64,000 bases of DNA from Candidatus Nomurabacteria bacterium (GTDB lineage: Bacteria; Patescibacteriota; Minisyncoccia; Phycocordibacterales; UBA9973). The stretch spans positions 686-64,685 of the forward strand of contig JAPLXS010000004.1 in assembly GCA_026395965.1 (NCBI GenBank), written 5' to 3'. Below the pieces are notes generated by a model that saw only the letters and a list, made by a program, of their open reading frames with translations, was not told the DNA's origin and did not search any database. Positions 28,852 through 40,237 of this stretch are shown here, one piece after another (position 1 is the stretch's first letter; the number at the start of each line of letters is the position of its first letter). A program made the translations under genes and the position numbers.

Positions 28852-31761
28852 TTAGAATTTTTTGATGATTATATCAATAAGTCGATTCAAATATTTATGA
28901 AAATCAGATATCTGAATTTTATTCTTATAATCTTTAAGTATTAATTCTTGGAGGGTACGCTTTGCTTCTTTTATAAATTCTTCTCGCTTAGATGAATCTT
29001 GCCAACCATCATCAAGAATATTTTCAAGACGAGATGTCATTTCTTTTATGAATTCTTTTTCAGTGCTCTCATCTGACCCAGAAAGAAATTCTTCCGAAAT
29101 AACATATAGTCCATATTCGTGGAGTGTGTATCCAAGTTCCTTTGCTTCTTCGGTCTTTGTTTTAATATCATTTAAGAGTTCATAATATCTTTTTATTCGC
29201 TCAGCAAGATCTATTTGGTGCTTCTCAAACTCTACCCTGATAGCTGTTAATCGTTCTCCAAAGCCCTTAAAAGCAGGGTGTGTGTCGATATTGATAGATA
29301 TTTCACGCTTAAGCATCTTTTCAAGATTTAAAGCTTTTTCTTCTTCAGGAAGTTTATCGAGTTTATTAAGAGTTGCAAGATCATGCACATTCAATTCTCT
29401 AAAGTTTTTAGTAATACCCTCATAGTCAATTTTATCTTGAATCAAGCTCTTAATTTTTACTCCGTAGTCAGCAAGAGAAAAAGCGTCTATTCCCTCGGCT
29501 TGAAATTCTTTACTAAATGCTAAATAAAAACTTGTAACCCATTCAAACTTTCTTAGGTAATCCATCAAGAATGGATCTGGTGAAAGTATTTCAAAAAGCA
29601 TTTTCAAGCGACCATATTTATCTTTAAAAAATTGTTGTTTACTTTCATTGTCAATGAATATTTTTAAACATCGACGTAGATTATCAATTGACGGATCCTC
29701 TATGTTTACACCCTCAAATAAACTCATAACTTCATCAAGCACATTAATAAAATCATCTTTAAGTCGATCGATATTTATCATTGCACTATCGACAATACTT
29801 TCGTCAAAATTCAGTGCATCATATAAATTTTTAGTCACACCATAATAGTCAATAATCTTTCCACACCCTTTGTTTGGGTAAACACGATTTGTGCGAGCGA
29901 TCGCCTGTAGAAGATTATGGTCACGAAGTGGTTTATCAAGATACATAACTTGCTCAACTGGTGCATCAAATCCAGTCAAAAGCATGTCACAAACAAGTAG
30001 AAATTTAAGTGGATTAGCTGAATCTTTAAACTGTTCAATTACTTTTTCTCGTTTTTGTTTGTTTGTATTATATTTTTTTAGATCATCATTATCACTATTT
30101 GGATCGCCGGGCGAATAGACTACCTCAGACCATTCTGGTGGTATAAGTTTATCAAGTAAATCTTTATATTTTGCTGTAGCTTCACGATCATAACAAACTA
30201 TCTGTGCTTTGAATCCGTTAGGTAAAACATAAAGTTTGTAATGTTCAACTATATCTTGAGATACTGCCTCCATTCTTTTGTCTAGCTTAACTAGAGCTTC
30301 TTTTTTACCATATCTCTTTGTAAGTAATTCTTTTTGAGCAGTATTAAGTTCAGAAGTAAGTTCATTGAACTGTGCATCAACCTTATCTTCGTCAATAAAG
30401 AATTTTGAAAGTCGTGCCTCATAAGTTACAGGCAAGGTCGCACCATCATCAATTGCTTGCTGAATAGAGTAATAATCTAGATATCTCTCACCGTCTTCAC
30501 CAAAATTTCTGTGAGTATTTGTTGTCAGTTTATCAATTGGAGTACCAGTAAATCCAAAAAAGAATGCATCTTTAAAAGCATTACGCATTTTAATAGCAGA
30601 GACACCTTCATTGTCTCGATGAGCTTCATCAGATAAAACGATAACATTACCCTCGATTTTTTCTATTTCCTCTAGCTCAGTAAACTTTTGAATTGTAGAG
30701 ATAAAAATACCTCGATCTGCTCCCTTAATTTTCTTTTCAAGATCTTTACGAGATTCAACACGGATCAAATTTTGACCACCCCATGCTTCAAATTCTTCAA
30801 AAACTTGATCATCAAGGTCAATACGATCAATAAGAATAAAAACTTTAGGATTTTTTAGTTCTAGATTATAACGAAGTTTCCACGCCGTAAAAAACATAGT
30901 AAGTGTTTTACCTGAACCCTGTGTGTGCCAAATAAGACCTTTCTTTACGTCACCATTTTTTACTCGTTCAACTATCTTATTACTTGCATACAATTGTTGA
31001 TAGCGAGCAATCTTTTTAGTAATTCCATCTTTTTTCTTTTCAAATACAATAAAGTTTTTAAGAATATCGAGCAGTTGTTCTTTATTTAAGAGAAAGTGTA
31101 AAGTAGAATCTATTTCTTCATCAAATAACTTTTTATCAGCCTGAGGATCTTCTCTCCAAGTTAGAAAATATTGTTTTGGAGAATACGTTGCTCCATAAAC
31201 TGTTTTAAGTCCATCTGTTGCAATATTAAAGCAGTTTGTGAGAAAGAGTTTTGGAGCAACTTTTTCATATCGCTTGATTTGATCAATAGCATTTTCAAAG
31301 TTTACTGAACTTGAAGCAGTAGGGCTTTTGGCTTCAATATCGCAAATTGGCATACCATTAAGAAAAACCAATACGTCAGGGCGAATGTTTTCAGTGTTAC
31401 CCTCAAAATAGAACTGGTTTGTTACAACGAATTTGTTATTTTCTATAATATCAAAATCTACTATTTTATAATCACGATTTTTACCAGTTTCTGGATCTTT
31501 GATATTTATACCATTTCGCAACGCCAGAAGAACTGCTTCGTTGGTATCAAGTTTTTTGGCTTCACGCATTACACTTATGGCGACTGTTTCATCTATGGAG
31601 TTAATTTTCTGAATTGCTTCAAGTAAGTGAGAACTAATAATGTACTCGTTTTCAAAAGTACGAAGTTTAGAAAATTCATCAGCAGAAATATACTCATAAC
31701 CGAGTTCCTTTATGAATTTTATTATATGATATTCAATTGTGTGTTGTTCGTTAAATTTCAT
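28852..31761 (-). CDS. hsdR: type I restriction enzyme R subunit HsdR
   Basis: N-terminal nuclease-like region, SF2 helicase Walker A HTQGSGKTLT and DEAH-like box, about 970 aa. Confidence 0.9.
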   Translation of the reverse strand: MKFNEQHTIEYHIIKFIKELGYEYISADEFSKLRTFENEYIISSHLLEAIQKINSIDETVAISVMREAKKLDTNEAVLLALRNGINIKDPETGKNRDYKIVDFDIIENNKFVVTNQFYFEGNTENIRPDVLVFLNGMPICDIEAKSPTASSSVNFENAIDQIKRYEKVAPKLFLTNCFNIATDGLKTVYGATYSPKQYFLTWREDPQADKKLFDEEIDSTLHFLLNKEQLLDILKNFIVFEKKKDGITKKIARYQQLYASNKIVERVKNGDVKKGLIWHTQGSGKTLTMFFTAWKLRYNLELKNPKVFILIDRIDLDDQVFEEFEAWGGQNLIRVESRKDLEKKIKGADRGIFISTIQKFTELEEIEKIEGNVIVLSDEAHRDNEGVSAIKMRNAFKDAFFFGFTGTPIDKLTTNTHRNFGEDGERYLDYYSIQQAIDDGATLPVTYEARLSKFFIDEDKVDAQFNELTSELNTAQKELLTKRYGKKEALVKLDKRMEAVSQDIVEHYKLYVLPNGFKAQIVCYDREATAKYKDLLDKLIPPEWSEVVYSPGDPNSDNDDLKKYNTNKQKREKVIEQFKDSANPLKFLLVCDMLLTGFDAPVEQVMYLDKPLRDHNLLQAIARTNRVYPNKGCGKIIDYYGVTKNLYDALNFDESIVDSAMINIDRLKDDFINVLDEVMSLFEGVNIEDPSIDNLRRCLKIFIDNESKQQFFKDKYGRLKMLFEILSPDPFLMDYLRKFEWVTSFYLAFSKEFQAEGIDAFSLADYGVKIKSLIQDKIDYEGITKNFRELNVHDLATLNKLDKLPEEEKALNLEKMLKREISINIDTHPAFKGFGERLTAIRVEFEKHQIDLAERIKRYYELLNDIKTKTEEAKELGYTLHEYGLYVISEEFLSGSDESTEKEFIKEMTSRLENILDDGWQDSSKREEFIKEAKRTLQELILKDYKNKIQISDFHKYLNRLIDIIIKKF

Positions 31762-31763
31762 AA

Positions 31764-33125
31764 TTATTCTGTTACACTCTTTGTTTGTTCCGGAGTTTGC
31801 TGAGTTGTTTGAGATTTTATTACATGGTTTTTAGCTCCAAAATTAAACCAACTTTTTACACCACCATATATTTCTTGAGTTCTGTCTTTATCTTCATATG
31901 GTTCTTTGTAAATTCTTTCTATTGAAGCAAGAGTAAATTGAAGTAATTCGTCTTTTTTATCAGAAAACTTGTCGCTCAAAAGTTTAATATATGCTTGAAG
32001 TGAGGTAGATAATACTGTTTTGAAAGCATACCTCTCTTCGTAATCACGTTCCATATTGTAGTTATGCGAACAAAGATACACAAGATAAATCAAAGGTGAT
32101 GTAAATAAGTAACGATACCAAGCATGAAAGTCTTTAAATCCATCAACTGCTTTATTCTGAAGATAATAAATATACAAGACAGAAGCACCCAATAAAATAA
32201 CACTACCCAATGTTGCATACTTCCAAAATCTGGCATTCTTATAAATTGTATCTCTACGCTTAACAAAAGAATCAGTAAGACTACTAGCAGTTACTAGATC
32301 AAGAGTTTCTCCAATACTTTCCTTAAATTCTAAACTCTTTGCTTTCATTCCCTCAATTTCTTTAACGGAAGATTCAGCACTTTGTTTTAATTCTCCAGAC
32401 TTTTCAGAAAGAGTTTTTATCTCAATAAATCGTTGATCAACACTTGTCTTTGTTTTTATAATTTCACTCTTTAAATCTGTTGCAATATTTAAAGTAGCCT
32501 GAATACCAATCTTCGGATCATCAACTTTTGTTTTAAGTGGGAGAAAATTAGTTGTATAGTAAGTTTCGATTTCTACGACTTTTTCTGTGATAGAAAGAAC
32601 AGTAGCATTTACCTTTTCGAGAGCAGTCTGAGAATCAACTTCAATCTGATTTATACTGTTCTTTAGTGCTGTTGCTTGATCTAACAAGGCTTGAAGTCCT
32701 GTTTGACCATCGTTGAGTTTGCTTTTTAAATCTGTAAATGTTCCATAGTAAGTCTCCAACTCTTGGATTTTGATATTTATGGCATTTGCTTTCTCTGTGA
32801 TTTGATTAAGTTCAGTTTGAGCATTTGTGTTTACTTGATCTATTTTATTTTTGAGATTTGTAGATTGATTAAATAATGCTTCCATTCCAGTACTACCGTC
32901 AGAAAGCTTCGTACGAATTTCAATAAAATTTGTGTGGTATAACTCAATCTCTTCAGATTTAGTAATAACACCAGCACTAAGAGCTTCAATTTTTTCTTTT
33001 TCTTTCTTTACATCTGCAATAAAACCCTCAAGCTCTTTTTTGAGAGCTTCTACATCAATTGTTGTTTGGTTTTTTATTTCTTCAGTTTCCATATAATTAA
33101 TTCTTAATTGTTCTAACTTTTCCAC
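31764..33125 (-). CDS. coiled-coil protein with three roughly 64-aa tandem repeats and a C-terminal 2-TM region; function unknown, embedded between hsdS and hsdR
   Basis: Repeats of the type KLSDGSTGMEALFNQSTNLKNKIDQ / KLNDGQTGLQALLDQATALKNSINQ / KVDDPKIGIQATLNIATDLKSEI; TM helices YATLGSVILLGASVLYIYYL and LFTSPLIYLVYLC; no NTPase motif. Confidence 0.6.
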   Translation of the reverse strand: MEKLEQLRINYMETEEIKNQTTIDVEALKKELEGFIADVKKEKEKIEALSAGVITKSEEIELYHTNFIEIRTKLSDGSTGMEALFNQSTNLKNKIDQVNTNAQTELNQITEKANAINIKIQELETYYGTFTDLKSKLNDGQTGLQALLDQATALKNSINQIEVDSQTALEKVNATVLSITEKVVEIETYYTTNFLPLKTKVDDPKIGIQATLNIATDLKSEIIKTKTSVDQRFIEIKTLSEKSGELKQSAESSVKEIEGMKAKSLEFKESIGETLDLVTASSLTDSFVKRRDTIYKNARFWKYATLGSVILLGASVLYIYYLQNKAVDGFKDFHAWYRYLFTSPLIYLVYLCSHNYNMERDYEERYAFKTVLSTSLQAYIKLLSDKFSDKKDELLQFTLASIERIYKEPYEDKDRTQEIYGGVKSWFNFGAKNHVIKSQTTQQTPEQTKSVTE

Positions 33126-34209
33126 TCAATAGATCCGACATTAATCCTTTTTTGAGTTTTATAAACTTATTTTTTAATTTCTTACTTATTAATATTTTTT
33201 TGTCTACCAAAGATAAAATCTCTGCTATTTTTACTTGTTCAACATATCTTGGCACGGCGACTAACTCTTTATGAACAATATTTCGATTAAGCGTTGGAAC
33301 CCCTGTGCCCGTTCCAAATCTTTTTAGATCAAAATTTTGAATTTTATAGTATACAAATTTTTCGTTATTTTTATGAAAATCCTTAACATAAAGTGTTGTA
33401 TTGTGAGGCCAAAAATCATTTTCTATATAAAAAACATTACCGAGTGTGCCACTTCTGCCTGTAACTACACCAGGAGATTTAATTTTTGTCTCGTTATGAT
33501 AATCAGTAATACCATTTGAAGTTACTAACGGATATAAACCGATTGTTCGATCTGGTACTGGTAAATCAAATCCTCTTTGCAAAGTCGCAAATTCTTCAAA
33601 GGTTTTTATTTCCCATTCTTCTGGGACATATCCAATTTTTGTTTTTTTAAATTTTTTATGATCTACACCCTTTGTAAAAAGGACAAACATTAGAGCTTTC
33701 TTTAGTTTTTCTGTTTGTAAAATAATTGAATCAATCTTTTGAATTTCAATATCTACACTAGATAAAATATTGGCAATATTTTTTTGCTCAGTTAATAATG
33801 GGATTATTATGCTCTGTTCTTGGTACTGAGAAATGTAATGTCTCTTATGATTTTCTACTTGAAAATTAGATGACTTGATCATTTCGTATATAAATTTCAA
33901 ATCAGTAGCATCGTCTATAGTTTTTAGAATTTTAATTGCAGATGATTTAATTTTAAAGTTAAAATCTACATACTTACTATCAGTGGTAAAATCATCAAAA
34001 ATAATTGCAGGAGTTTTTGTATAAATACCAAAATCTTCATCGGTATATCCAAGAATAAATGATTTATTTGCTGTTAAGACAGGTGTTTTTCCAGTAGGGG
34101 TATAAGCAGTACTTTCGACAATATAATTTCCTGGTTGCTCAAACGACAAAACTTCTTTAATTTTTTTTATCTCCCAACCTTTTGGAATTTTTGTGGTTAA
34201 TGTTTTCAT
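33097..34209 (-). CDS. hsdS: type I restriction-modification specificity subunit HsdS
   Basis: Two target-recognition domains each introduced by PxGWEx(K/V)...(E/F) (IPKGWEIKKIKEV and VPEEWEIKTFEEF) with conserved central and C-terminal helices; start chosen at MKTLTT (ATGA overlap with the upstream gene); the ORF track has an alternative start at 34272. Confidence 0.8.
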   Translation of the reverse strand: MKTLTTKIPKGWEIKKIKEVLSFEQPGNYIVESTAYTPTGKTPVLTANKSFILGYTDEDFGIYTKTPAIIFDDFTTDSKYVDFNFKIKSSAIKILKTIDDATDLKFIYEMIKSSNFQVENHKRHYISQYQEQSIIIPLLTEQKNIANILSSVDIEIQKIDSIILQTEKLKKALMFVLFTKGVDHKKFKKTKIGYVPEEWEIKTFEEFATLQRGFDLPVPDRTIGLYPLVTSNGITDYHNETKIKSPGVVTGRSGTLGNVFYIENDFWPHNTTLYVKDFHKNNEKFVYYKIQNFDLKRFGTGTGVPTLNRNIVHKELVAVPRYVEQVKIAEILSLVDKKILISKKLKNKFIKLKKGLMSDLLSGKVRTIKN

Positions 34210-35120
34210 ATGTTTCTTGATTGAACAGCTTTTATTAAATCTGAAATTGCTGAATTCAAAACTTGCAGACATATCTTTGCAGTATGTTCATCTGGGGCAA
34301 ACCCAGAAACAGCTTGTTCAAAAGGATGAACATAGTTACGAAAATCTCGCAATGCGTGGCTAAATTTTTTTACATCAAGACCCAGAAACCCTGTTTCGTT
34401 AGCAGTATTGATAAAGTTTTCAAGTGTCCAATCCTGAAAGGCTTTAATTTTCCCAATTTTATCTTTAGGACTTGAATTTGCTTGATTAAATTCCTTGGGA
34501 TATTTACTTGCGATACCAAGTAATAATCCTTCAAGTGTGCTACCTGCCATAAAAATAGAAGCAAGCGGAGCTTTATGGGCTATACATTGGCGTGATTCTT
34601 TAATTCTTTCTTTGAGAACTAACTCGATAACACTATCAAGTCCTAATTTTGCAATATCATTACTTTCAAAATCCTTTTTAAGAAATTCTTCTTCAGTGGG
34701 TAGCGTATTGTTTACATTATCTATAATTGGTTTTTTAGATTCTTTTACGAAAACTATAAATGGGTCTTTACCGCTAAACTCAATCTTCATATTTTCCATA
34801 AATAAAATATTATTCATGGACTTTGTAGCCATTTCAAGTTTTGTCATATCTGCTTTATATTCTCTAATATCAACAAGTCGAAGTACAACCTTTTCAAGAT
34901 CATCCAAGTTTCGGTCATTCATTTGCTTGAGCATTTCAAGCACCCACCATTTTCTAGTGGAACCATCATGAGAAGCGTTAATACCAACATTGTTAAAAAA
35001 TCTTGTTAAATAAGACGAAGATCGATATTGTGGATATTTTGTGGTTTCATCTCCACAAATAAAATCAGCCAAGGAATCTAGGGTTGCGTTATCAAATTTT
35101 TGTTTAATAAATCTTGCCAT
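34206..35120 (-). CDS. hypothetical protein embedded between hsdM and hsdS; possible HEPN-like R-x6-H motif
   Basis: C-terminal ALRDFRNYVHPFEQ; location typical of Abi/HEPN/anticodon-nuclease-type riders in type I R-M operons. Confidence 0.5.
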   Translation of the reverse strand: MARFIKQKFDNATLDSLADFICGDETTKYPQYRSSSYLTRFFNNVGINASHDGSTRKWWVLEMLKQMNDRNLDDLEKVVLRLVDIREYKADMTKLEMATKSMNNILFMENMKIEFSGKDPFIVFVKESKKPIIDNVNNTLPTEEEFLKKDFESNDIAKLGLDSVIELVLKERIKESRQCIAHKAPLASIFMAGSTLEGLLLGIASKYPKEFNQANSSPKDKIGKIKAFQDWTLENFINTANETGFLGLDVKKFSHALRDFRNYVHPFEQAVSGFAPDEHTAKICLQVLNSAISDLIKAVQSRNI

Positions 35121-35122
35121 AG

Positions 35123-36865
35123 TTAATACCCAAGTTTATCCAAAAAATTTTCGACATTGCCATCGACTTCGGTAAATTCTCTTTTAAGAAGTTTTATTTC
35201 TGCTCGTACTTTTTTGACATCAATAACTTCTTCTATCTCTGTAGAGTCGATATACTGTTTAATGTTTAAAGTGTACTTATTTTCTGCAATCTCAGAAAGA
35301 TCTACCACTCGTGCATATTTTTCGATCATCATATATCCATCATATGCTTTAATAATTTTTGCTATATCTTGAGGACGAAGACTATTCTGGTTTTTACCTT
35401 CAAGAAAATCTTTATCAGCATCTATAATTAAAATCTTTTCTTTTTTTTCTTTAGGTTTGTTTTTATTAAAAATTAAAATTACTGCAGGTATGCCCGTTCC
35501 ATAAAAAAGTTTTGATGGTAATGATACAATAGCTTCTATTAAGTCATTCTTAATAATCTGTTCACGAATACGTCCCTCGGCACCACCACGGAATAGAACG
35601 CCGTGAGGAAGCACAATACCTGCACGACCATTTTGATTCATTGATTTAATTATATGTAACATAAAAGCATAATCAGCGTTTTTATCAGGCGGAGCATCAT
35701 AACCATCTAGGCGACCAAACTTTGTTTTAAATGCTTCATATTCCCAATCTTTTATTGAATAGGGTGGATTTGCTACTACAATATCAAAGGTTTGAAGCCC
35801 ACCTTGTTGATTAAGAAATTGCGGATTAGCAAGAGTATCACCTCGACGAATATCTGCACTATCAAGCCCATGAAGAAACATATTAATTCGAGCAATTGCA
35901 AAAGTTGCTAGTTCTTGTTCTTGTCCATAAAGATAAAGTGTCTTTGCAATTTTTTCACCAGATTTCTGTTTTAAATAATCATATGATTCTAAAAGGAAAC
36001 CGCCTGATCCAACAGTTGGATCATAAATATGATCTTTCTGGTGTGGTTTAAGAATACCAAGAATCACTCGTTCAACTTCACGAGGAGTATAGAAACTTCC
36101 ACCTTTTTTACCAGCATCGGCAGCGAATTGTTTAATTAAATATTCATATGCATCACCAAGTAAATCAGAACTTATGTATGTATTACCAAAATTATATTGC
36201 GAAAAATGGTTAATAAGTCTTTGAAGTGTTTCATTTGGAAATCTATCTTTATTTGCAAAATCTAAATCATCAAAAATTTTATCAAGCTTGGGACTATTAG
36301 CATTTACTAATTTATCAAAAATATTATTTAACTTTTGCCCAATGCTTTCTGCTTGTTCGGTAACTTTATCCCATCTACAATCTTTGGGTACTTGAAAGCG
36401 ATGATTATAATCTGCACATGCGATAGACTTGTCGTTATATTCTTTCATCACAGTGTTGTATTCTTCATCCCACACATCACTCATTCGTTTATAAAAAAGA
36501 AGACCGAAGATATATTTCTTATAATCAGAACTGTCAATTTTACCTCGAAGAATATCTGCACTTTTCCAAAGAAATGATTCAAGTTGAGGAAGTGTGAGTT
36601 TACTACCCATTTTATCTACAATGGCTTCTATGTCTTGAGGTCGATATTTTCGATCCTTACGAGGACCTACACGAAGAGGAACGAGGGTGCCGTCTTTCTC
36701 CCAGTTTCGTAAAGTATCTTGATGAATAGAGAAAATCTCTGCTACCTGACTGATAGATAGTAATTCTGGCATGCCTTTAAGTTTTGATTGTATATCTTTT
36801 CGCATAATTGACAGTAGTAGTCTATCAGATTCCAAATATAAAGTCAAGTGTTCATAGGTTTTCAT
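35123..36865 (-). CDS. hsdM: type I R-M N6-adenine DNA methyltransferase HsdM with an N-terminal MerR/Xis-like HTH extension
   Basis: NPPY motif (VVANPPYSIKDW), HsdM_N helix LESFLWKSADILRG; N-terminal ISQVAEIFSIHQDTLRNWEKDG HTH. Confidence 0.9.
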   Translation of the reverse strand: MKTYEHLTLYLESDRLLLSIMRKDIQSKLKGMPELLSISQVAEIFSIHQDTLRNWEKDGTLVPLRVGPRKDRKYRPQDIEAIVDKMGSKLTLPQLESFLWKSADILRGKIDSSDYKKYIFGLLFYKRMSDVWDEEYNTVMKEYNDKSIACADYNHRFQVPKDCRWDKVTEQAESIGQKLNNIFDKLVNANSPKLDKIFDDLDFANKDRFPNETLQRLINHFSQYNFGNTYISSDLLGDAYEYLIKQFAADAGKKGGSFYTPREVERVILGILKPHQKDHIYDPTVGSGGFLLESYDYLKQKSGEKIAKTLYLYGQEQELATFAIARINMFLHGLDSADIRRGDTLANPQFLNQQGGLQTFDIVVANPPYSIKDWEYEAFKTKFGRLDGYDAPPDKNADYAFMLHIIKSMNQNGRAGIVLPHGVLFRGGAEGRIREQIIKNDLIEAIVSLPSKLFYGTGIPAVILIFNKNKPKEKKEKILIIDADKDFLEGKNQNSLRPQDIAKIIKAYDGYMMIEKYARVVDLSEIAENKYTLNIKQYIDSTEIEEVIDVKKVRAEIKLLKREFTEVDGNVENFLDKLGY

Positions 36866-36900: not shown

Positions 36901-38223
36901 TTATTCTATACTAATCTTTTTATTTGAGAATATAATTTTACTCTTTAAACACCCCAATAACTCTCTTTTCTCGACATCTTGCCCCTCTCTTAAAATGTAC
37001 TTAGCATAATTCCGTATATCAATATCCTTAATTACTATTTTTTCTTTAATCCCAAGAACAGACATTTGAAATTTCTTTATCCTTTCCACCTCTGCCTTAA
37101 TTTTTTCTTTTATCCCTATCTCGTCAATATCTATTTTTTCTATTAGTTCCTCAAATTGTTTAAGCAAATCAATTTCATTAATATAGCCACATTTACAATC
37201 TCTGTCTTTTGACTTATTACAACCATAATAAACATGGCGGTGAACATTTCCATTCTTTTGTTTTTTAAATTTCTCATCTGGTGTCACACCCGATCCGCAT
37301 AACCCACAAGTCATTAATTTAGTAAAAGCGAACTCTTTACCCTCAGTTCGGATAACCTGACTTTTCATTTGTAACTGTACCTCATTAAATAATTCTTTAG
37401 TTATTATTGATTCATGTTTTCCTGTATACCAGTTTCCACTATTTTTAGGATATTCAAATACTCCGTAATAGAAATGATTTTGAAGAATTGTATAAATATT
37501 ACCTAAACTTAAATTTTTGTTTCCGCCAGCTGTTTTTAAATTCAAATCAAATTTTAACCAATGATATATTTTTCTCCCACTCCATTTTTCATAAGCAACT
37601 TTCTCAAACATTTTTTTAATAATTGGTGCTCGGTTTGGATCTAGAATAACTTGGCATTTTCTATCTATACGTTTTTCACTTAAATATCCAGTTGGAGGAG
37701 GTCCAGGCCATAATCCCATTTCAACTCTAGTCCTTAGTCCACGTTTTACATTTATACTTTTATTGTCATTCTCAAGTTTTGCCTGAGAACATAAAATCAT
37801 TAAAAGAAATTTTTCATTAGGAGAATTCTGAAACGATTGTCCGTAAGTTCGTATTTGTAAAAGTAATTTTTGATCCATTAAATCTACGAGTGATCCAAGG
37901 TCTCCTGCATTTCTACTTAATCTATCTGGTGCCCATGTGAGTATTCCATTAAACCGTCCACGCCGTATATCTTCCAGTATTTCCTTATATACAGGTCTTT
38001 CTCCAGACTCTTTAGCTGAATGAGATTCTCTTCTAATTTCTACAATTTCAAGTCCCTCCTTATCTGCCAACTGAAGCATTTCTTTTACTTGAGATTCGAT
38101 ACTTAAAATTTGTTTTTCTTCCGACTCTGTTGACTTACGAGCGTATAATACATATCTAATTTTTACTGTTGGAATAACAGCCATGGTGCCTATTAATCCA
38201 ACATTATTTATTTGTGTTTCCAT
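36901..38223 (-). CDS. large serine recombinase (resolvase/invertase catalytic domain, recombinase domain and Zn ribbon)
   Basis: YARKSTESEEKQILSIESQ catalytic Ser region, RLSRN motif, C-terminal CGLCGS...CKCG zinc ribbon. Confidence 0.85.
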   Translation of the reverse strand: METQINNVGLIGTMAVIPTVKIRYVLYARKSTESEEKQILSIESQVKEMLQLADKEGLEIVEIRRESHSAKESGERPVYKEILEDIRRGRFNGILTWAPDRLSRNAGDLGSLVDLMDQKLLLQIRTYGQSFQNSPNEKFLLMILCSQAKLENDNKSINVKRGLRTRVEMGLWPGPPPTGYLSEKRIDRKCQVILDPNRAPIIKKMFEKVAYEKWSGRKIYHWLKFDLNLKTAGGNKNLSLGNIYTILQNHFYYGVFEYPKNSGNWYTGKHESIITKELFNEVQLQMKSQVIRTEGKEFAFTKLMTCGLCGSGVTPDEKFKKQKNGNVHRHVYYGCNKSKDRDCKCGYINEIDLLKQFEELIEKIDIDEIGIKEKIKAEVERIKKFQMSVLGIKEKIVIKDIDIRNYAKYILREGQDVEKRELLGCLKSKIIFSNKKISIE

Positions 38224-38565
38224 ACCTAATGATGTCAGAGAAAAGGTCTTCTGCTAAGCTATCGCTTGTTGGCAACTTGTTGGTAACTTCCTCTGATATT
38301 TTAAGCTATTGCGATAGAATGGGCTTTGAATAATATGGTCGAAGTGATATTATTTAATTACAACTAAATATATAAAGTAAGTAGCCTAAACCTTTGGTAA
38401 CAAAGGCATGGTGAATAAGAGCGGATAAAGCATAAAGAACTCCTAGTCAGAGCTCGGCTTTATCCGCCCATACTTGGAAACGAGTATGTGTAGCTGAAAA
38501 GCTACAAGCTGGCTGGGAGCTTTTTGCGTCTTAGCCAGATTTATAACAAAACGCAAAAAATAACT
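38224..38565. promoter_or_regulatory. unusually long hairpin-rich non-coding region adjacent to the serine recombinase (candidate att/junction or structured leader)
   Basis: 300 bp non-coding in a compact genome; stems gcggataaagc/gctttatccgc, catact/agtatg, ctggct/agccag, cctttg/caaagg; 11-bp direct repeat cttgttggYaa. Confidence 0.3.
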
Positions 38566-39027
38566 ATGAGTGATCAAACACACAGTGAAAAAGTTTGGGA
38601 CAAAATCTTGAGTCCTAATGAAGAAGTTAAATATGAGTTCTCAATTGGAAAGCAGTATATAAAAACATATTTGATAATTTGGGCGATAATAAGTATACCT
38701 TTTGTTTTTGCAGTTGTTGGATTATTTATGTTTGCTTTAGCATTTTTGTATTTAAAAATATATTTACCAAAAGCAAATATCTACGGATTTACTAATAAGA
38801 GAGTACTGATACATAGAGGATTCTTTTCTACTGACTTAGTCAGTGTAGACTACAACAAAATTACTGATGTTACTGTTCGAGTATCTTTCTTAGATAAGAC
38901 ATTCACAAAGAGTGGACAGATATGTATTAATACAGCAGGTGGAATGGGTAAAGAAATAATCTTACAGCATGTAGCTAACCCATATGAAATTAAGAAAAAG
39001 TTGGACGGGTTAAGAGATGATAAGTAA
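38566..39027 (+). CDS. membrane protein with a bacterial PH (bPH_2/YdbS-like) domain
   Basis: Two TM helices followed by TNKRVLIHRGFFSTDLVSVDYNKITDVTV; the ORF track starts at an alternative TTG at 38524. Confidence 0.6.
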   Translation: MSDQTHSEKVWDKILSPNEEVKYEFSIGKQYIKTYLIIWAIISIPFVFAVVGLFMFALAFLYLKIYLPKANIYGFTNKRVLIHRGFFSTDLVSVDYNKITDVTVRVSFLDKTFTKSGQICINTAGGMGKEIILQHVANPYEIKKKLDGLRDDK

Positions 39028-39728
39028 TGAACATTATCTTAACTTGGAATATACGGCACGGCGGGGGCACGAGGGTAAATAAAATAATTGAAACTCTCAA
39101 GGGTCATACTGACGCTACGACCATTATTTTAACTGAGTTTAGGAATAACGATAATGCTTTACCAATACAAGAGGCACTCAAAGAACTTGGTTTCATTTAT
39201 CAATTCAAGGCACAGACTGAAATCAATAAAAATTCAGTTTTAATCGTTTCCAAAGAGAATTTTAAATACAAACTATTTCCTGAACTTACGAATCACTCCG
39301 AGCGTGTAGTAAAAGTCTATAATGATAACTATTCAATCTATGGTTGTTACTTCCCTGGAATGGATGACAAGAAATATGTGTTTGATTTCTTACTAAATGA
39401 GATTGAGAAAAACCCCAATGAGAAAATTATTATCACAGGAGATATTAATACTGGGAAACATTATATAGATGAACAGGGAGCAACCTTTGCTCATTCAGCG
39501 TATATCAACAAAATTGAAGAAAGTAATTTATTTGACGCATGGAGATATATTCACAACGACAAGAAAGACTTCAGTTGGTACAGTAGTGCGGGAAATGGAT
39601 TTAGACTAGATCACTTTTTTGTTCATAATGATTTAAAACCAAATGTTGTAAGTTGTGAATATATTCACCAATATAGAGAAGACAAGATTACAGATCATTC
39701 GATGATGGTGCTGACGTTAAGAAATTAA
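39027..39728 (+). CDS. endonuclease/exonuclease/phosphatase (EEP) family protein
   Basis: N-terminal LTWNIRHGGG, catalytic D/H near the C-terminus (ITDHSMMVL); ATGA overlap with the upstream gene. Confidence 0.7.
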   Translation: MNIILTWNIRHGGGTRVNKIIETLKGHTDATTIILTEFRNNDNALPIQEALKELGFIYQFKAQTEINKNSVLIVSKENFKYKLFPELTNHSERVVKVYNDNYSIYGCYFPGMDDKKYVFDFLLNEIEKNPNEKIIITGDINTGKHYIDEQGATFAHSAYINKIEESNLFDAWRYIHNDKKDFSWYSSAGNGFRLDHFFVHNDLKPNVVSCEYIHQYREDKITDHSMMVLTLRN

Positions 39729-40237
39729 TTATTTCCATATGCTTTCAACGCTTTTGTTTCTGCATCTTCAGTAGTTTCTAATTTTTCTGGTATCGGCATG
39801 GGAGCTAATTTAATTGTATATTCGATATTTTCTGTCTTAACTTCTTGTATGTCTTGCTTGTCACAATTAAACCAATCCTGCTCAAACTTTTTAAGTTTAA
39901 CTTTGTCAGGTATCAGATAACTAAGATCTTCTTCACTACGATATGTTCTTAGCACTCTCCTGTATTTAGGATTTCTGTGCACGAGATAAAATTTGGCTGC
40001 GTTCAAATCATTGTCTTGAATACCTCTTGCAACGACACTTTCTGCTCCGTCACTTAAAAGACTGTCACCCTCAGCTTGAGCTTCATCAGCTTTTTTAGCA
40101 AATCCAGGAATATCTTTACGCCATTGGTAATAAGTTTGACGAGATACATTCAATTTTCTACAAGCCGAACCGATAATCGGATTTGTTCTTAACTCATCTA
40201 TAAATAATTGATTGAGTTTATGCTTTTTCATCGCCAC
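39725..40237 (-). CDS. HTH protein, phage terminase small subunit-like
   Basis: ACRKLNVSRQTYYQWRKD HTH; sits next to a ParB-methylase as in phage packaging modules. Confidence 0.4.
   Translation of the reverse strand: MAMKKHKLNQLFIDELRTNPIIGSACRKLNVSRQTYYQWRKDIPGFAKKADEAQAEGDSLLSDGAESVVARGIQDNDLNAAKFYLVHRNPKYRRVLRTYRSEEDLSYLIPDKVKLKKFEQDWFNCDKQDIQEVKTENIEYTIKLAPMPIPEKLETTEDAETKALKAYGNN

Follow-up and report, generated by a model that had tools for sequence, protein, structure and literature searches.

Our analysis of a 64,000-nucleotide stretch of Candidatus Nomurabacteria DNA (contig JAPLXS010000004.1), referred to below as the window, concerns a gene, here called X, which lies on the minus strand between hsdS and hsdR of a type I restriction-modification (R-M) operon. 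The X family is linked to R-M systems of at least six unrelated restriction/methylase enzyme families. The product of the gene is a helical two-pass membrane protein and probably a defence accessory acting at the membrane, and we regard it as a membrane-embedded accessory of a mobile R-M island bounded by a serine recombinase. The reading we prefer, held tentatively and with somewhat less than even confidence, is that X is an R-M-coupled membrane effector, a second line of defence that would arrest or kill the cell while restriction proceeds or when it fails.

The association of X with type I restriction is conserved well outside the window. The gene order hsdM-[variable cargo]-hsdS-X-hsdR-YgjP, in which hsdM carries a MerR-type domain, was recognized in 11 distinct loci, comprising the window and ten others (L002, L003, L008-10, L015/16, L017/18, L019/20/32, L024, L031, L034 and L035), and a YgjP-like gene is present in every type I locus of the lineage. 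The junctions of X consist of gaps of 2-4 nt or of 4-nt overlaps. The position of X is fixed in all of these loci while the cargo between hsdM and hsdS turns over: this slot contains a DUF4145-like gene in the window and SduA_C, RhuM, a Bflower protein or small open reading frames (ORFs) elsewhere, and since related operons hold different genes there, it behaves as a hotspot for defence-gene cargo. Identity to the proteins of the window ranged from 65 to 90% for HsdR, from 73 to 86% for HsdM and from 43 to 78% for X, which evolves faster than the other two. The type I occurrences represent retention of X over considerable divergence, not independent acquisitions. A preliminary description of this DNA, prepared from the sequence of the window, had proposed that X is part of the hsd operon, and the conserved slot with its narrow junctions bears this out; recurrent R-M linkage of the homologues, set beforehand as a test, was strongly confirmed by the type I slot together with the loci described next.

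In about 12 further distinct loci, X is divergent from a gene coding for a protein with LexA_DNA_bind and Peptidase_S24 domains. Four different methyltransferase families are represented among the fusion partners or neighbours of the LexA-type repressor in these loci. The repressor is found fused to an N6_N4 methylase with a TaqI- or BglII-type nuclease nearby, to a D12-class methylase, or to an N6_Mtase/Eco57I/TaqI_C methylase, and also as a free-standing protein followed by an N6_N4 methylase and a TdeIII nuclease. X is followed by a methylase and an MvaI/BcnI nuclease in one locus, and two loci contain a GIY-YIG ORF of 126-146 aa directly upstream of X in the same operon (L044:6972-7352 and L048:6914-7354), which may encode the nuclease of the R-M system there. 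In the LexA-like proteins, both the Ala-Gly cleavage site and the catalytic Ser/Lys dyad are retained, by comparison with E. coli LexA. The X copy of L026, a LexA-methylase/TaqI locus, is 60% identical to X of the window in its N-terminal part and 79% identical in its C-terminal part, hence the whole protein works with unrelated restriction enzymes.

The intergenic regions between lexA and X (L004, L005, L026, L027, L038 and L044-L048; e.g., L046:5196-5255) share a common layout even where the flanking enzymes are different. The promoter toward X (TTGACT/TTGACA, 17/18 nt, TATACT), the -35 element of which often lies inside the first lexA codons, is directly followed by a direct repeat with a period of 11 bp, ACCTAAAC-N3-ACCTAAAC; the repeat varies by locus and elsewhere consists of ACTAGAA, CCTAAAA or ACCGAA, each present twice. 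Viewed from the opposite strand, the direct repeats occupy the spacer of what is likely to be a leaderless lexA promoter. In most loci, the DnaA-box consensus TTATCC[A/C]CA stands 8-24 nt upstream of an ATG, which is that of X or, if a GIY-YIG ORF comes first, the ATG of this ORF; in L004 the distance is larger, and in L026 the box is reversed. We interpret the direct repeats as a putative operator of the LexA-type repressor, and the repressor/methylase arrangement looks like an undescribed form of R-M control in Patescibacteria that would be wired to DNA damage; a literature search on LexA-methylase fusions or restriction circuits of the Candidate Phyla Radiation (CPR) returned nothing relevant.

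More distant members of the family agree with the defence-type setting that had been expected for relatives of X. One copy adjoins HEPN_AbiU2 in a serine-recombinase island, and another (L022:11525-12881) precedes a 51-aa ORF and genes for a ThsB-type TIR protein and a caspase-like Peptidase_C14, RhuM-Fic also being encoded close by, an arrangement reminiscent of protease-activated membrane effectors. The Riemerella phage vB_RanS_GDF21 (PP067979.1) carries a 440-aa homologue (L061:5299-6621) in a moron-type position between the early genes and a block of helix-turn-helix (HTH) repressor and integrase genes. This is the usual place for accessory genes expressed in the lysogen. Further copies were located directly after a DUF900 hydrolase, in another recombinase island, and on a Hymenobacter plasmid, where X adjoins a P-loop NTPase with DUF4041 nearby.

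The ORF 31764..33125 (-) is present in the window at the coordinates listed for it, and its first in-frame start codon, GTG at 33125, gives a protein of 453 aa. We take the start of X to be the ATG at 33092, 11 codons inside the GTG, because this ATG is separated from the hsdS stop by a gap of 4 nt, the N-termini of all long-form homologues align at M12 ('ME(N/T)EE'; numbering of the 453-aa form), and the identical database (NCBI) protein, from a Candidatus Nomurabacteria metagenome-assembled genome, has 442 aa. The 29-nt overlap of the X start with the hsdS stop, as described earlier, does not survive this correction and is most likely an ORF-calling artefact arising from the GTG extension. 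The reported closeness of the X stop to the hsdR start does hold, with 2 nt between them (TAA-TT-ATG), and X is still tightly packed with hsdS and hsdR. The features of X are the following, with amino acid positions here and below given in the numbering of the 442-aa form.

31764..33092 (-): coding sequence of protein X, 442 aa plus stop; most likely start ATG at 33092
33093..33125 (-): 11-codon in-frame extension to GTG 33125, probably untranslated; the extension occurs in no homologue
32769..32960 (-): repeat 1 (R1), aa 45-108; R1 vs R2 score 136, z = 21; R1 vs R3 score 95, z = 15
32577..32768 (-): repeat 2 (R2), aa 109-172; pairwise local alignment with R1 and R3
32382..32576 (-): repeat 3 (R3), aa 173-237, more diverged; R2 vs R3 score 94, z = 14
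31893..32342 (-): conserved C-terminal family module, aa 251-400; invariant alignment columns; AlphaFold predicted local distance difference test (pLDDT) 80.9
32160..32222 (-): transmembrane (TM) helix 1, aa ~291-311; Kyte-Doolittle peak 1.74; family-averaged hydropathy >1.3 over aa 294-308
32067..32111 (-): TM helix 2, aa ~328-342; family-averaged hydropathy; helix 101-144 of the module model
31767..31892 (-): poorly conserved tail, aa 401-442, predicted disordered; pLDDT <50; variable in the alignment

The three tandem repeats of ~64 aa noted in the preliminary description were confirmed by pairwise local scores of 94-136 against a shuffle mean of ~26 (z = 14-21; 0 of 500 shuffles as high). 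They contain the motif KL(S/N)DG.TG, which in the AlphaFold model forms the loop joining long helices. The model of X comprises four long helices split by these 'DG.TG' loops, a helix leading into TM1, a loop, TM2 and two further helices, and the last ~45 residues are disordered in the models. The N-terminal coiled coil proposed earlier stands in so far as the region is helical, with a hydrophobic periodicity of 3.52 residues over aa 14-268 (equalled by 0 of 300 shuffles), but it would better be described as a zig-zag of four long amphipathic helices. This description is provisional because the full-length model, built from a 22-sequence alignment, has a low confidence (pLDDT 57); it was too weak for a fold search, and the model of the module (49-sequence alignment; mean pLDDT 80.9, predicted template modelling score 0.63) was therefore used instead.

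Hydropathy confirms the two TM helices, placed by the family average at aa ~292-311 and ~328-342, and the ~100-aa C-terminal tail previously assigned to X. The module consists, in order, of a pre-TM amphipathic helix, TM1, a short loop, TM2 and two cytoplasmic helices, and its conserved motifs are SF..R, W, R..(T/S)SP (in TM2), (Q/N)Y..ER...EKYAFK and IYKEP. TM2 is shorter than TM1 and rich in aromatic residues. Its Pro333 is invariant, and a conserved Arg, Arg327, is located at the outer end. The cytoplasmic sides of the TM helices are bordered by basic residues, a pattern that suggests an N-in/C-in topology with both ends of the module in the cytoplasm. A motif search for GxxxxGK[ST] or [AG]xxxxGK found no Walker A in X, in agreement with the earlier statement that the protein has no NTPase motif.

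A word-indexed search yielded 53 relatives of X, all unnamed or 'hypothetical', which fall into two length classes of ~445 and ~340 aa, share a conserved region in the C-terminal ~170 residues and, where organism names are given, belong to Patescibacteria (CPR). An exhaustive search of 1.84 billion cluster representatives with a profile of the module revealed 1,911 clusters at E <= 1e-3 and 757 at E <= 1e-10 (clusters counted at 50% identity); X itself matches the module hidden Markov model (HMM) at 3.7e-102. The module invariably forms the C-terminal part of the protein, with 0 to ~400 residues of helical sequence before it, and proteins of ~200 aa consisting of the module alone exist, which suggests that the module is the functional core. 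A second profile search with the module again returned solely 'hypothetical protein' entries and no Pfam domain. The matches include organism names from Bacteroidota and Neisseriaceae, and thus the range of the family extends well beyond CPR.

The full-length protein searched against Pfam, NCBIfam, PHROGs and PADLOC gave merely sub-threshold coiled-coil noise (GAS, Filament, SMC, LmuB and JetC); in PADLOC-DB v2 nothing was significant, LmuB and JetC appearing as such noise at E = 0.02. The SLATT families (Pfam SLATT_1-5) were not among the 12 families listed for X at hmmscan E <= 1. When PADLOC models were run against 49 C-terminal modules, none matched more than one member, and the PycTM models matched one member each (E = 0.002 and 0.008). 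The sequence profile of the module compared with all PDB chains gave a best match not below E = 0.09, and the best E-value of a Foldseek search of the module model against PDB was 0.6. The SLATT-like or pore-forming fold that the preliminary description had envisaged for the two-TM region thus received no signal from the HMM scans or from Foldseek against PDB, and the suggested likeness to known membrane-disrupting effectors was not upheld by any effector HMM or fold. Weak matches to EzrA (7 members) and CrgA (6 members), all below gathering thresholds, were noted in the family. The module also occurs in PHROGs 30912 and 34659, which match 17 and 10 of the 49 members, respectively (best E ~5e-8), and a scan of IMG/VR gave no close relative of X.

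The two parts of X have separate histories and recombine independently. One relative (P0021) is 87% identical to X of the window over aa 1-172 and 43% identical over aa 251-400, and another (P0014) shows the reverse pattern (49% and 83%, respectively). At the DNA level, the window can be aligned with L017 across hsdS and into X, where the first 450 nt are homologous; the similarity ends at 32640 and begins again at 31782, shortly ahead of hsdR. The break, spanning 31782-32640 of the window versus L017:6164-7037 in operons that are otherwise 71-78% identical, falls exactly over the C-terminal module, and hence the module was swapped as a cassette within a conserved operon. In a neighbour-joining tree of the module, in which three truncated sequences are unreliable, type I, LexA-linked and stand-alone copies are interleaved. 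Fast evolution of X together with the swapping of its parts is a pattern typical of conflict genes.

The minus-strand operon in the window comprises hsdM, a 304-aa gene, hsdS, X, hsdR and a YgjP-like gene, with a serine recombinase at the edge:

36901..38223 (-): large serine recombinase, edge of the island; Pfam Resolvase, Recombinase, Zn_ribbon_recom
35123..36865 (-): hsdM with N-terminal MerR-type HTH; Pfam N6_Mtase, HsdM_N, MerR_1 (aa 37-81)
34206..35120 (-): 304-aa gene in the variable hsdM-hsdS slot; Pfam DUF4145 at E = 5.9e-4, below the gathering threshold
33097..34272 (-): hsdS, immediately upstream of X; Pfam Methylase_S, E = 5.9e-22
28852..31761 (-): hsdR, 2 nt past the X stop; Pfam HSDR_N, SWI2_SNF2, ResIII, T1R_D3-like
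28280..28849 (-): YgjP-like metallopeptidase, last gene of the operon; Pfam YgjP-like, E = 6e-43
28218..28254: perfect 15-bp inverted repeat, 26 nt 3' of the YgjP stop; likely end of the operon

A second perfect hairpin, of 19 bp, follows pyrG at 27083-27127, and the hairpins at 28218-28254 and 27083-27127 are likely terminators delimiting the island and the neighbouring housekeeping gene. The product of the 304-aa gene contains RDFRNYVH, compatible with the HEPN-type Rx4-6H motif. A MerR_1-HsdM fusion was observed in every locus of the lineage with an annotated hsdM (the window, L008/L009, L015, L017/L018 and L019/L020); this fusion is a counterpart of the LexA-methylase ones and suggests an autoregulation of the operon by the methylase. 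The recombinase is on the same strand as hsdM in the window and, according to the called genes, inverted (divergent) in L008, L015 and L017. The inversion relative to L008 and L017 was confirmed by DNA alignment, with the hsdM homology starting at ~36870 in each, and could reflect self-inversion or independent insertion. Past the recombinase, at 38524-40237, the window codes for a bacterial PH-domain protein of 167 aa (bPH_2), a member of the endonuclease/exonuclease/phosphatase family and a small protein with an HTH. A promoter scan within the operon gave counts equal to chance, so that no internal promoter can be claimed for X, and a search for flanking repeats at the ends of the island found nothing convincing.

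If X is an R-M-coupled membrane effector, its coupling to restriction would run via a shared DNA-damage signal and not via specific binding of a restriction enzyme; a common signal is favoured over a conserved interface, for which the diversity of the enzymes and the interchangeability of the X alleles are too great. In type II loci, DNA ends would activate RecA, leading to cleavage of LexA and induction of X, the output of which would be a perturbation of the membrane. In the type I operon of the window, X would be made together with HsdS and HsdR, and its control would have to act after translation, because X is presumably constitutive with HsdR. The co-operonic YgjP-like protease is a candidate regulator, judged by adjacency alone. 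Gasdermin-like activation by a protease, considered in view of the caspase and YgjP genes nearby, was rejected, as nothing beyond adjacency spoke for it.

A wider proposal, which we consider rather unlikely, is that Patescibacteria possess a LexA-methylase circuit wired to the DNA-damage response with X as its output and as a new class of membrane effector. Autocleavable LexA-type repressors fused to methylases would sit on the shared divergent promoter with its DnaA-box-like site; DNA ends arising from restriction or from self-cutting would activate RecA, the LexA-methylase would cleave itself, and X, a protein unrelated to SLATT, gasdermin or holin folds, would be induced. In the type I lineage the same effector would be hard-wired next to hsdR, possibly under the control of YgjP.

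Several observations weigh against reading X as an effector. Neither SLATT, PycTM nor holin HMMs in Pfam and PADLOC were significant for X or the modules, and the fold neighbours of the module model are generic helical hairpins and no specific structure. The window contains no LexA-like ORF, and X has no LexA-type operator or DnaA-box-like motif nearby there; it appears to be constitutive with hsdR, which is unexpected for a toxic protein. The type I loci, with HsdR identities of 65-90%, form one operon lineage and hence count as one acquisition, not eleven. At least two members of the family lie in neighbourhoods without recognized defence genes. Moreover, the partners of the distant members are effector-type enzymes, and X as their common sensor or adaptor would fit equally well. 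A rival explanation is that of X as a non-toxic membrane anchor or sensor, which would tether or recruit the restriction machinery, and other nucleases or hydrolases in other lineages, at the inner membrane face, the site of entry of foreign DNA, or sense envelope perturbation, by a logic analogous to that of the long cytoplasmic tail of Zorya ZorA or of Kiwa KwaA. It would account for the combination of one conserved X with varied partners (Hsd, type II nucleases, HEPN_AbiU2, TIR/caspase and DUF900), for the tight packing of X and hsdR, which suggests co-production, for a constitutive co-expression in the type I operon that speaks against toxicity, and for a cytoplasmic helical length that varies with repeat number, from 0 to ~400 aa before the module. 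We nevertheless consider it unlikely: specific docking is hard to envisage for a protein that, at 60-79% identity, serves unrelated enzymes and also occurs alone, X is in the LexA-linked loci a repressed output and not a standing sensor, and no homology to ZorA/MotA or KwaA was detected.

The divergent position of X relative to an autocleavable LexA-type gene in ~12 loci, with a putative operator over the X promoter, also invites comparison with a checkpoint, in which X would be induced or become active when the cell's own DNA is cut and would protect the host, e.g., by pausing division, or alleviate restriction. Such a position is a hallmark of SOS division inhibitors of Gram-positive bacteria (PMC6851548), and the sub-threshold EzrA and CrgA matches (7 and 6 members) point in the same direction. 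However, the known inhibitors are single-pass proteins of ~60-110 aa, some with LysM, while X proteins are 340-460 aa long, have two TM helices and are not homologous to these inhibitors; the LexA proteins in question occur as methylase fusions on mobile islands and cannot readily be taken for the SOS regulator of the host, and the AbiU2, TIR/caspase and phage moron neighbours misfit a housekeeping checkpoint, which makes this explanation distinctly unlikely. X could alternatively be a hitch-hiker with a role unrelated to restriction (e.g., superinfection exclusion or the envelope) that travels in mobile islands. Serine recombinases do often adjoin X, and stand-alone copies occur among ordinary genes: a 69%-identical homologue lies alone beside HSP20 and genes of unidentified function in a Patescibacteria contig, and a Bacteroidota-like copy in a 4-Mb contig lies between lnt and hflX. 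Against this, X is kept in a fixed slot inside the operon while the adjacent cargo turns over, it was juxtaposed independently with at least four methylase and five nuclease families, and the regulatory DNA common to X and the LexA-methylase gene is conserved, so that we hold a mere passenger to be improbable. The last explanation is a guard of the PrrC/Ronin type, held inactive by direct binding to the Hsd complex and freed when a phage anti-restriction protein (e.g., Ocr or ArdA) inactivates the enzyme. X lies between hsdS and hsdR, tightly packed with both, just where prrC is found, and RonA demonstrates that a TM effector can be sequestered by HsdMS (bioRxiv 10.1101/2023.04.06.535777). However, sequestration by Hsd is unlikely because close whole-protein homologues work beside LexA-methylase/TaqI systems and as lone genes, and the free swapping of N- and C-terminal parts in nearly identical hsd operons argues against a co-evolved Hsd interface; the guard is thus quite improbable.

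Accessory genes of restriction operons (e.g., PrrC and Ronin) have shown how bacteria secure a backup for their first line of defence. X founds an unnamed family of ~1,900 clusters with no Pfam, NCBIfam or PADLOC profile and no structural relative, and it is coupled to many unrelated restriction enzymes instead of one. The LexA-methylase fusions and the conserved candidate operator suggest that restriction is tied to a DNA-damage switch in the CRISPR-poor CPR. If X is an effector, it would represent a new membrane-acting abortive-infection module; an anchor or sensor role would instead demonstrate that the membrane can be a site where restriction is organized.

Among known systems, the rlo ('R-linked ORF') genes of Campylobacter type I loci are, as X is, accessory ORFs between hsd genes. 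They are heterogeneous, whereas X is a single conserved family with a fixed slot that occurs with type II systems as well, and we know of no rlo family with the architecture of X. The SLATT-type and other two-TM effectors of cyclic-oligonucleotide-based anti-phage signalling systems, Pycsar and Thoeris (e.g., PycTM) share with X a two-TM hairpin with cytoplasmic helices and a defence-island context. Membership of X in SLATT was rejected for want of a profile match, the layout of two TM helices and cytoplasmic helices being present; X contains, moreover, no nucleotide-sensing domain, and its locus has no signal-generating partner enzyme. Zorya ZorA and Kiwa KwaA combine a membrane anchor with a long cytoplasmic helical region and are paired with nucleases, as X is, but X has no MotA/ExbB-type or KwaA HMM hit, just two TM helices and no ZorB-like partner. 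YneA, SosA and ChiZ resemble the relatives of X as membrane proteins encoded divergently from a gene for a LexA-type repressor (PMC6851548). They are small and single-pass, some with a LysM domain, whereas X, a protein five times their size, has two TM helices and gave no LysM hit; it resides in R-M islands, and its copy in the window has no lexA neighbour.

The closest parallels are the effectors attached to type I systems, namely PrrC and the 61-aa TM protein RonA (bioRxiv 10.1101/2023.04.06.535777). RonA of Ronin is, like X, a membrane protein whose gene is firmly joined to type I R-M genes, and it provides a precedent for a TM effector controlled by R-M. It differs in having 61 aa and one TM helix, in being linked to hsdS and hsdM (the genomes mostly lack hsdR) and in being neutralized by HsdMS, whereas X has 442 aa with two TM helices and repeats, belongs to a complete type I operon with adjacent hsdR and occurs also with type II systems; no sequence relationship between them was seen. 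PrrC, of the EcoprrI locus of E. coli, and RloC are likewise encoded between hsdS and hsdR and presumed to be an accessory second defence line. Both are cytoplasmic ABC-type ATPases with an anticodon nuclease domain, while X has neither Walker A nor a nuclease domain, contains two TM helices and has relatives outside type I loci. Membership of X in this group was rejected, as no Walker A and no ATPase hit beyond coiled-coil noise was found in Pfam or NCBIfam, which is consistent with the earlier view that X is not PrrC/RloC-like. The X family, its architecture, the breadth of its R-M partners and the LexA-methylase circuitry were not found described in the libraries or literature searched; as an accessory gene in a restriction operon, and possibly a backup effector, X belongs to a known kind, of which PrrC and Ronin are the examples.

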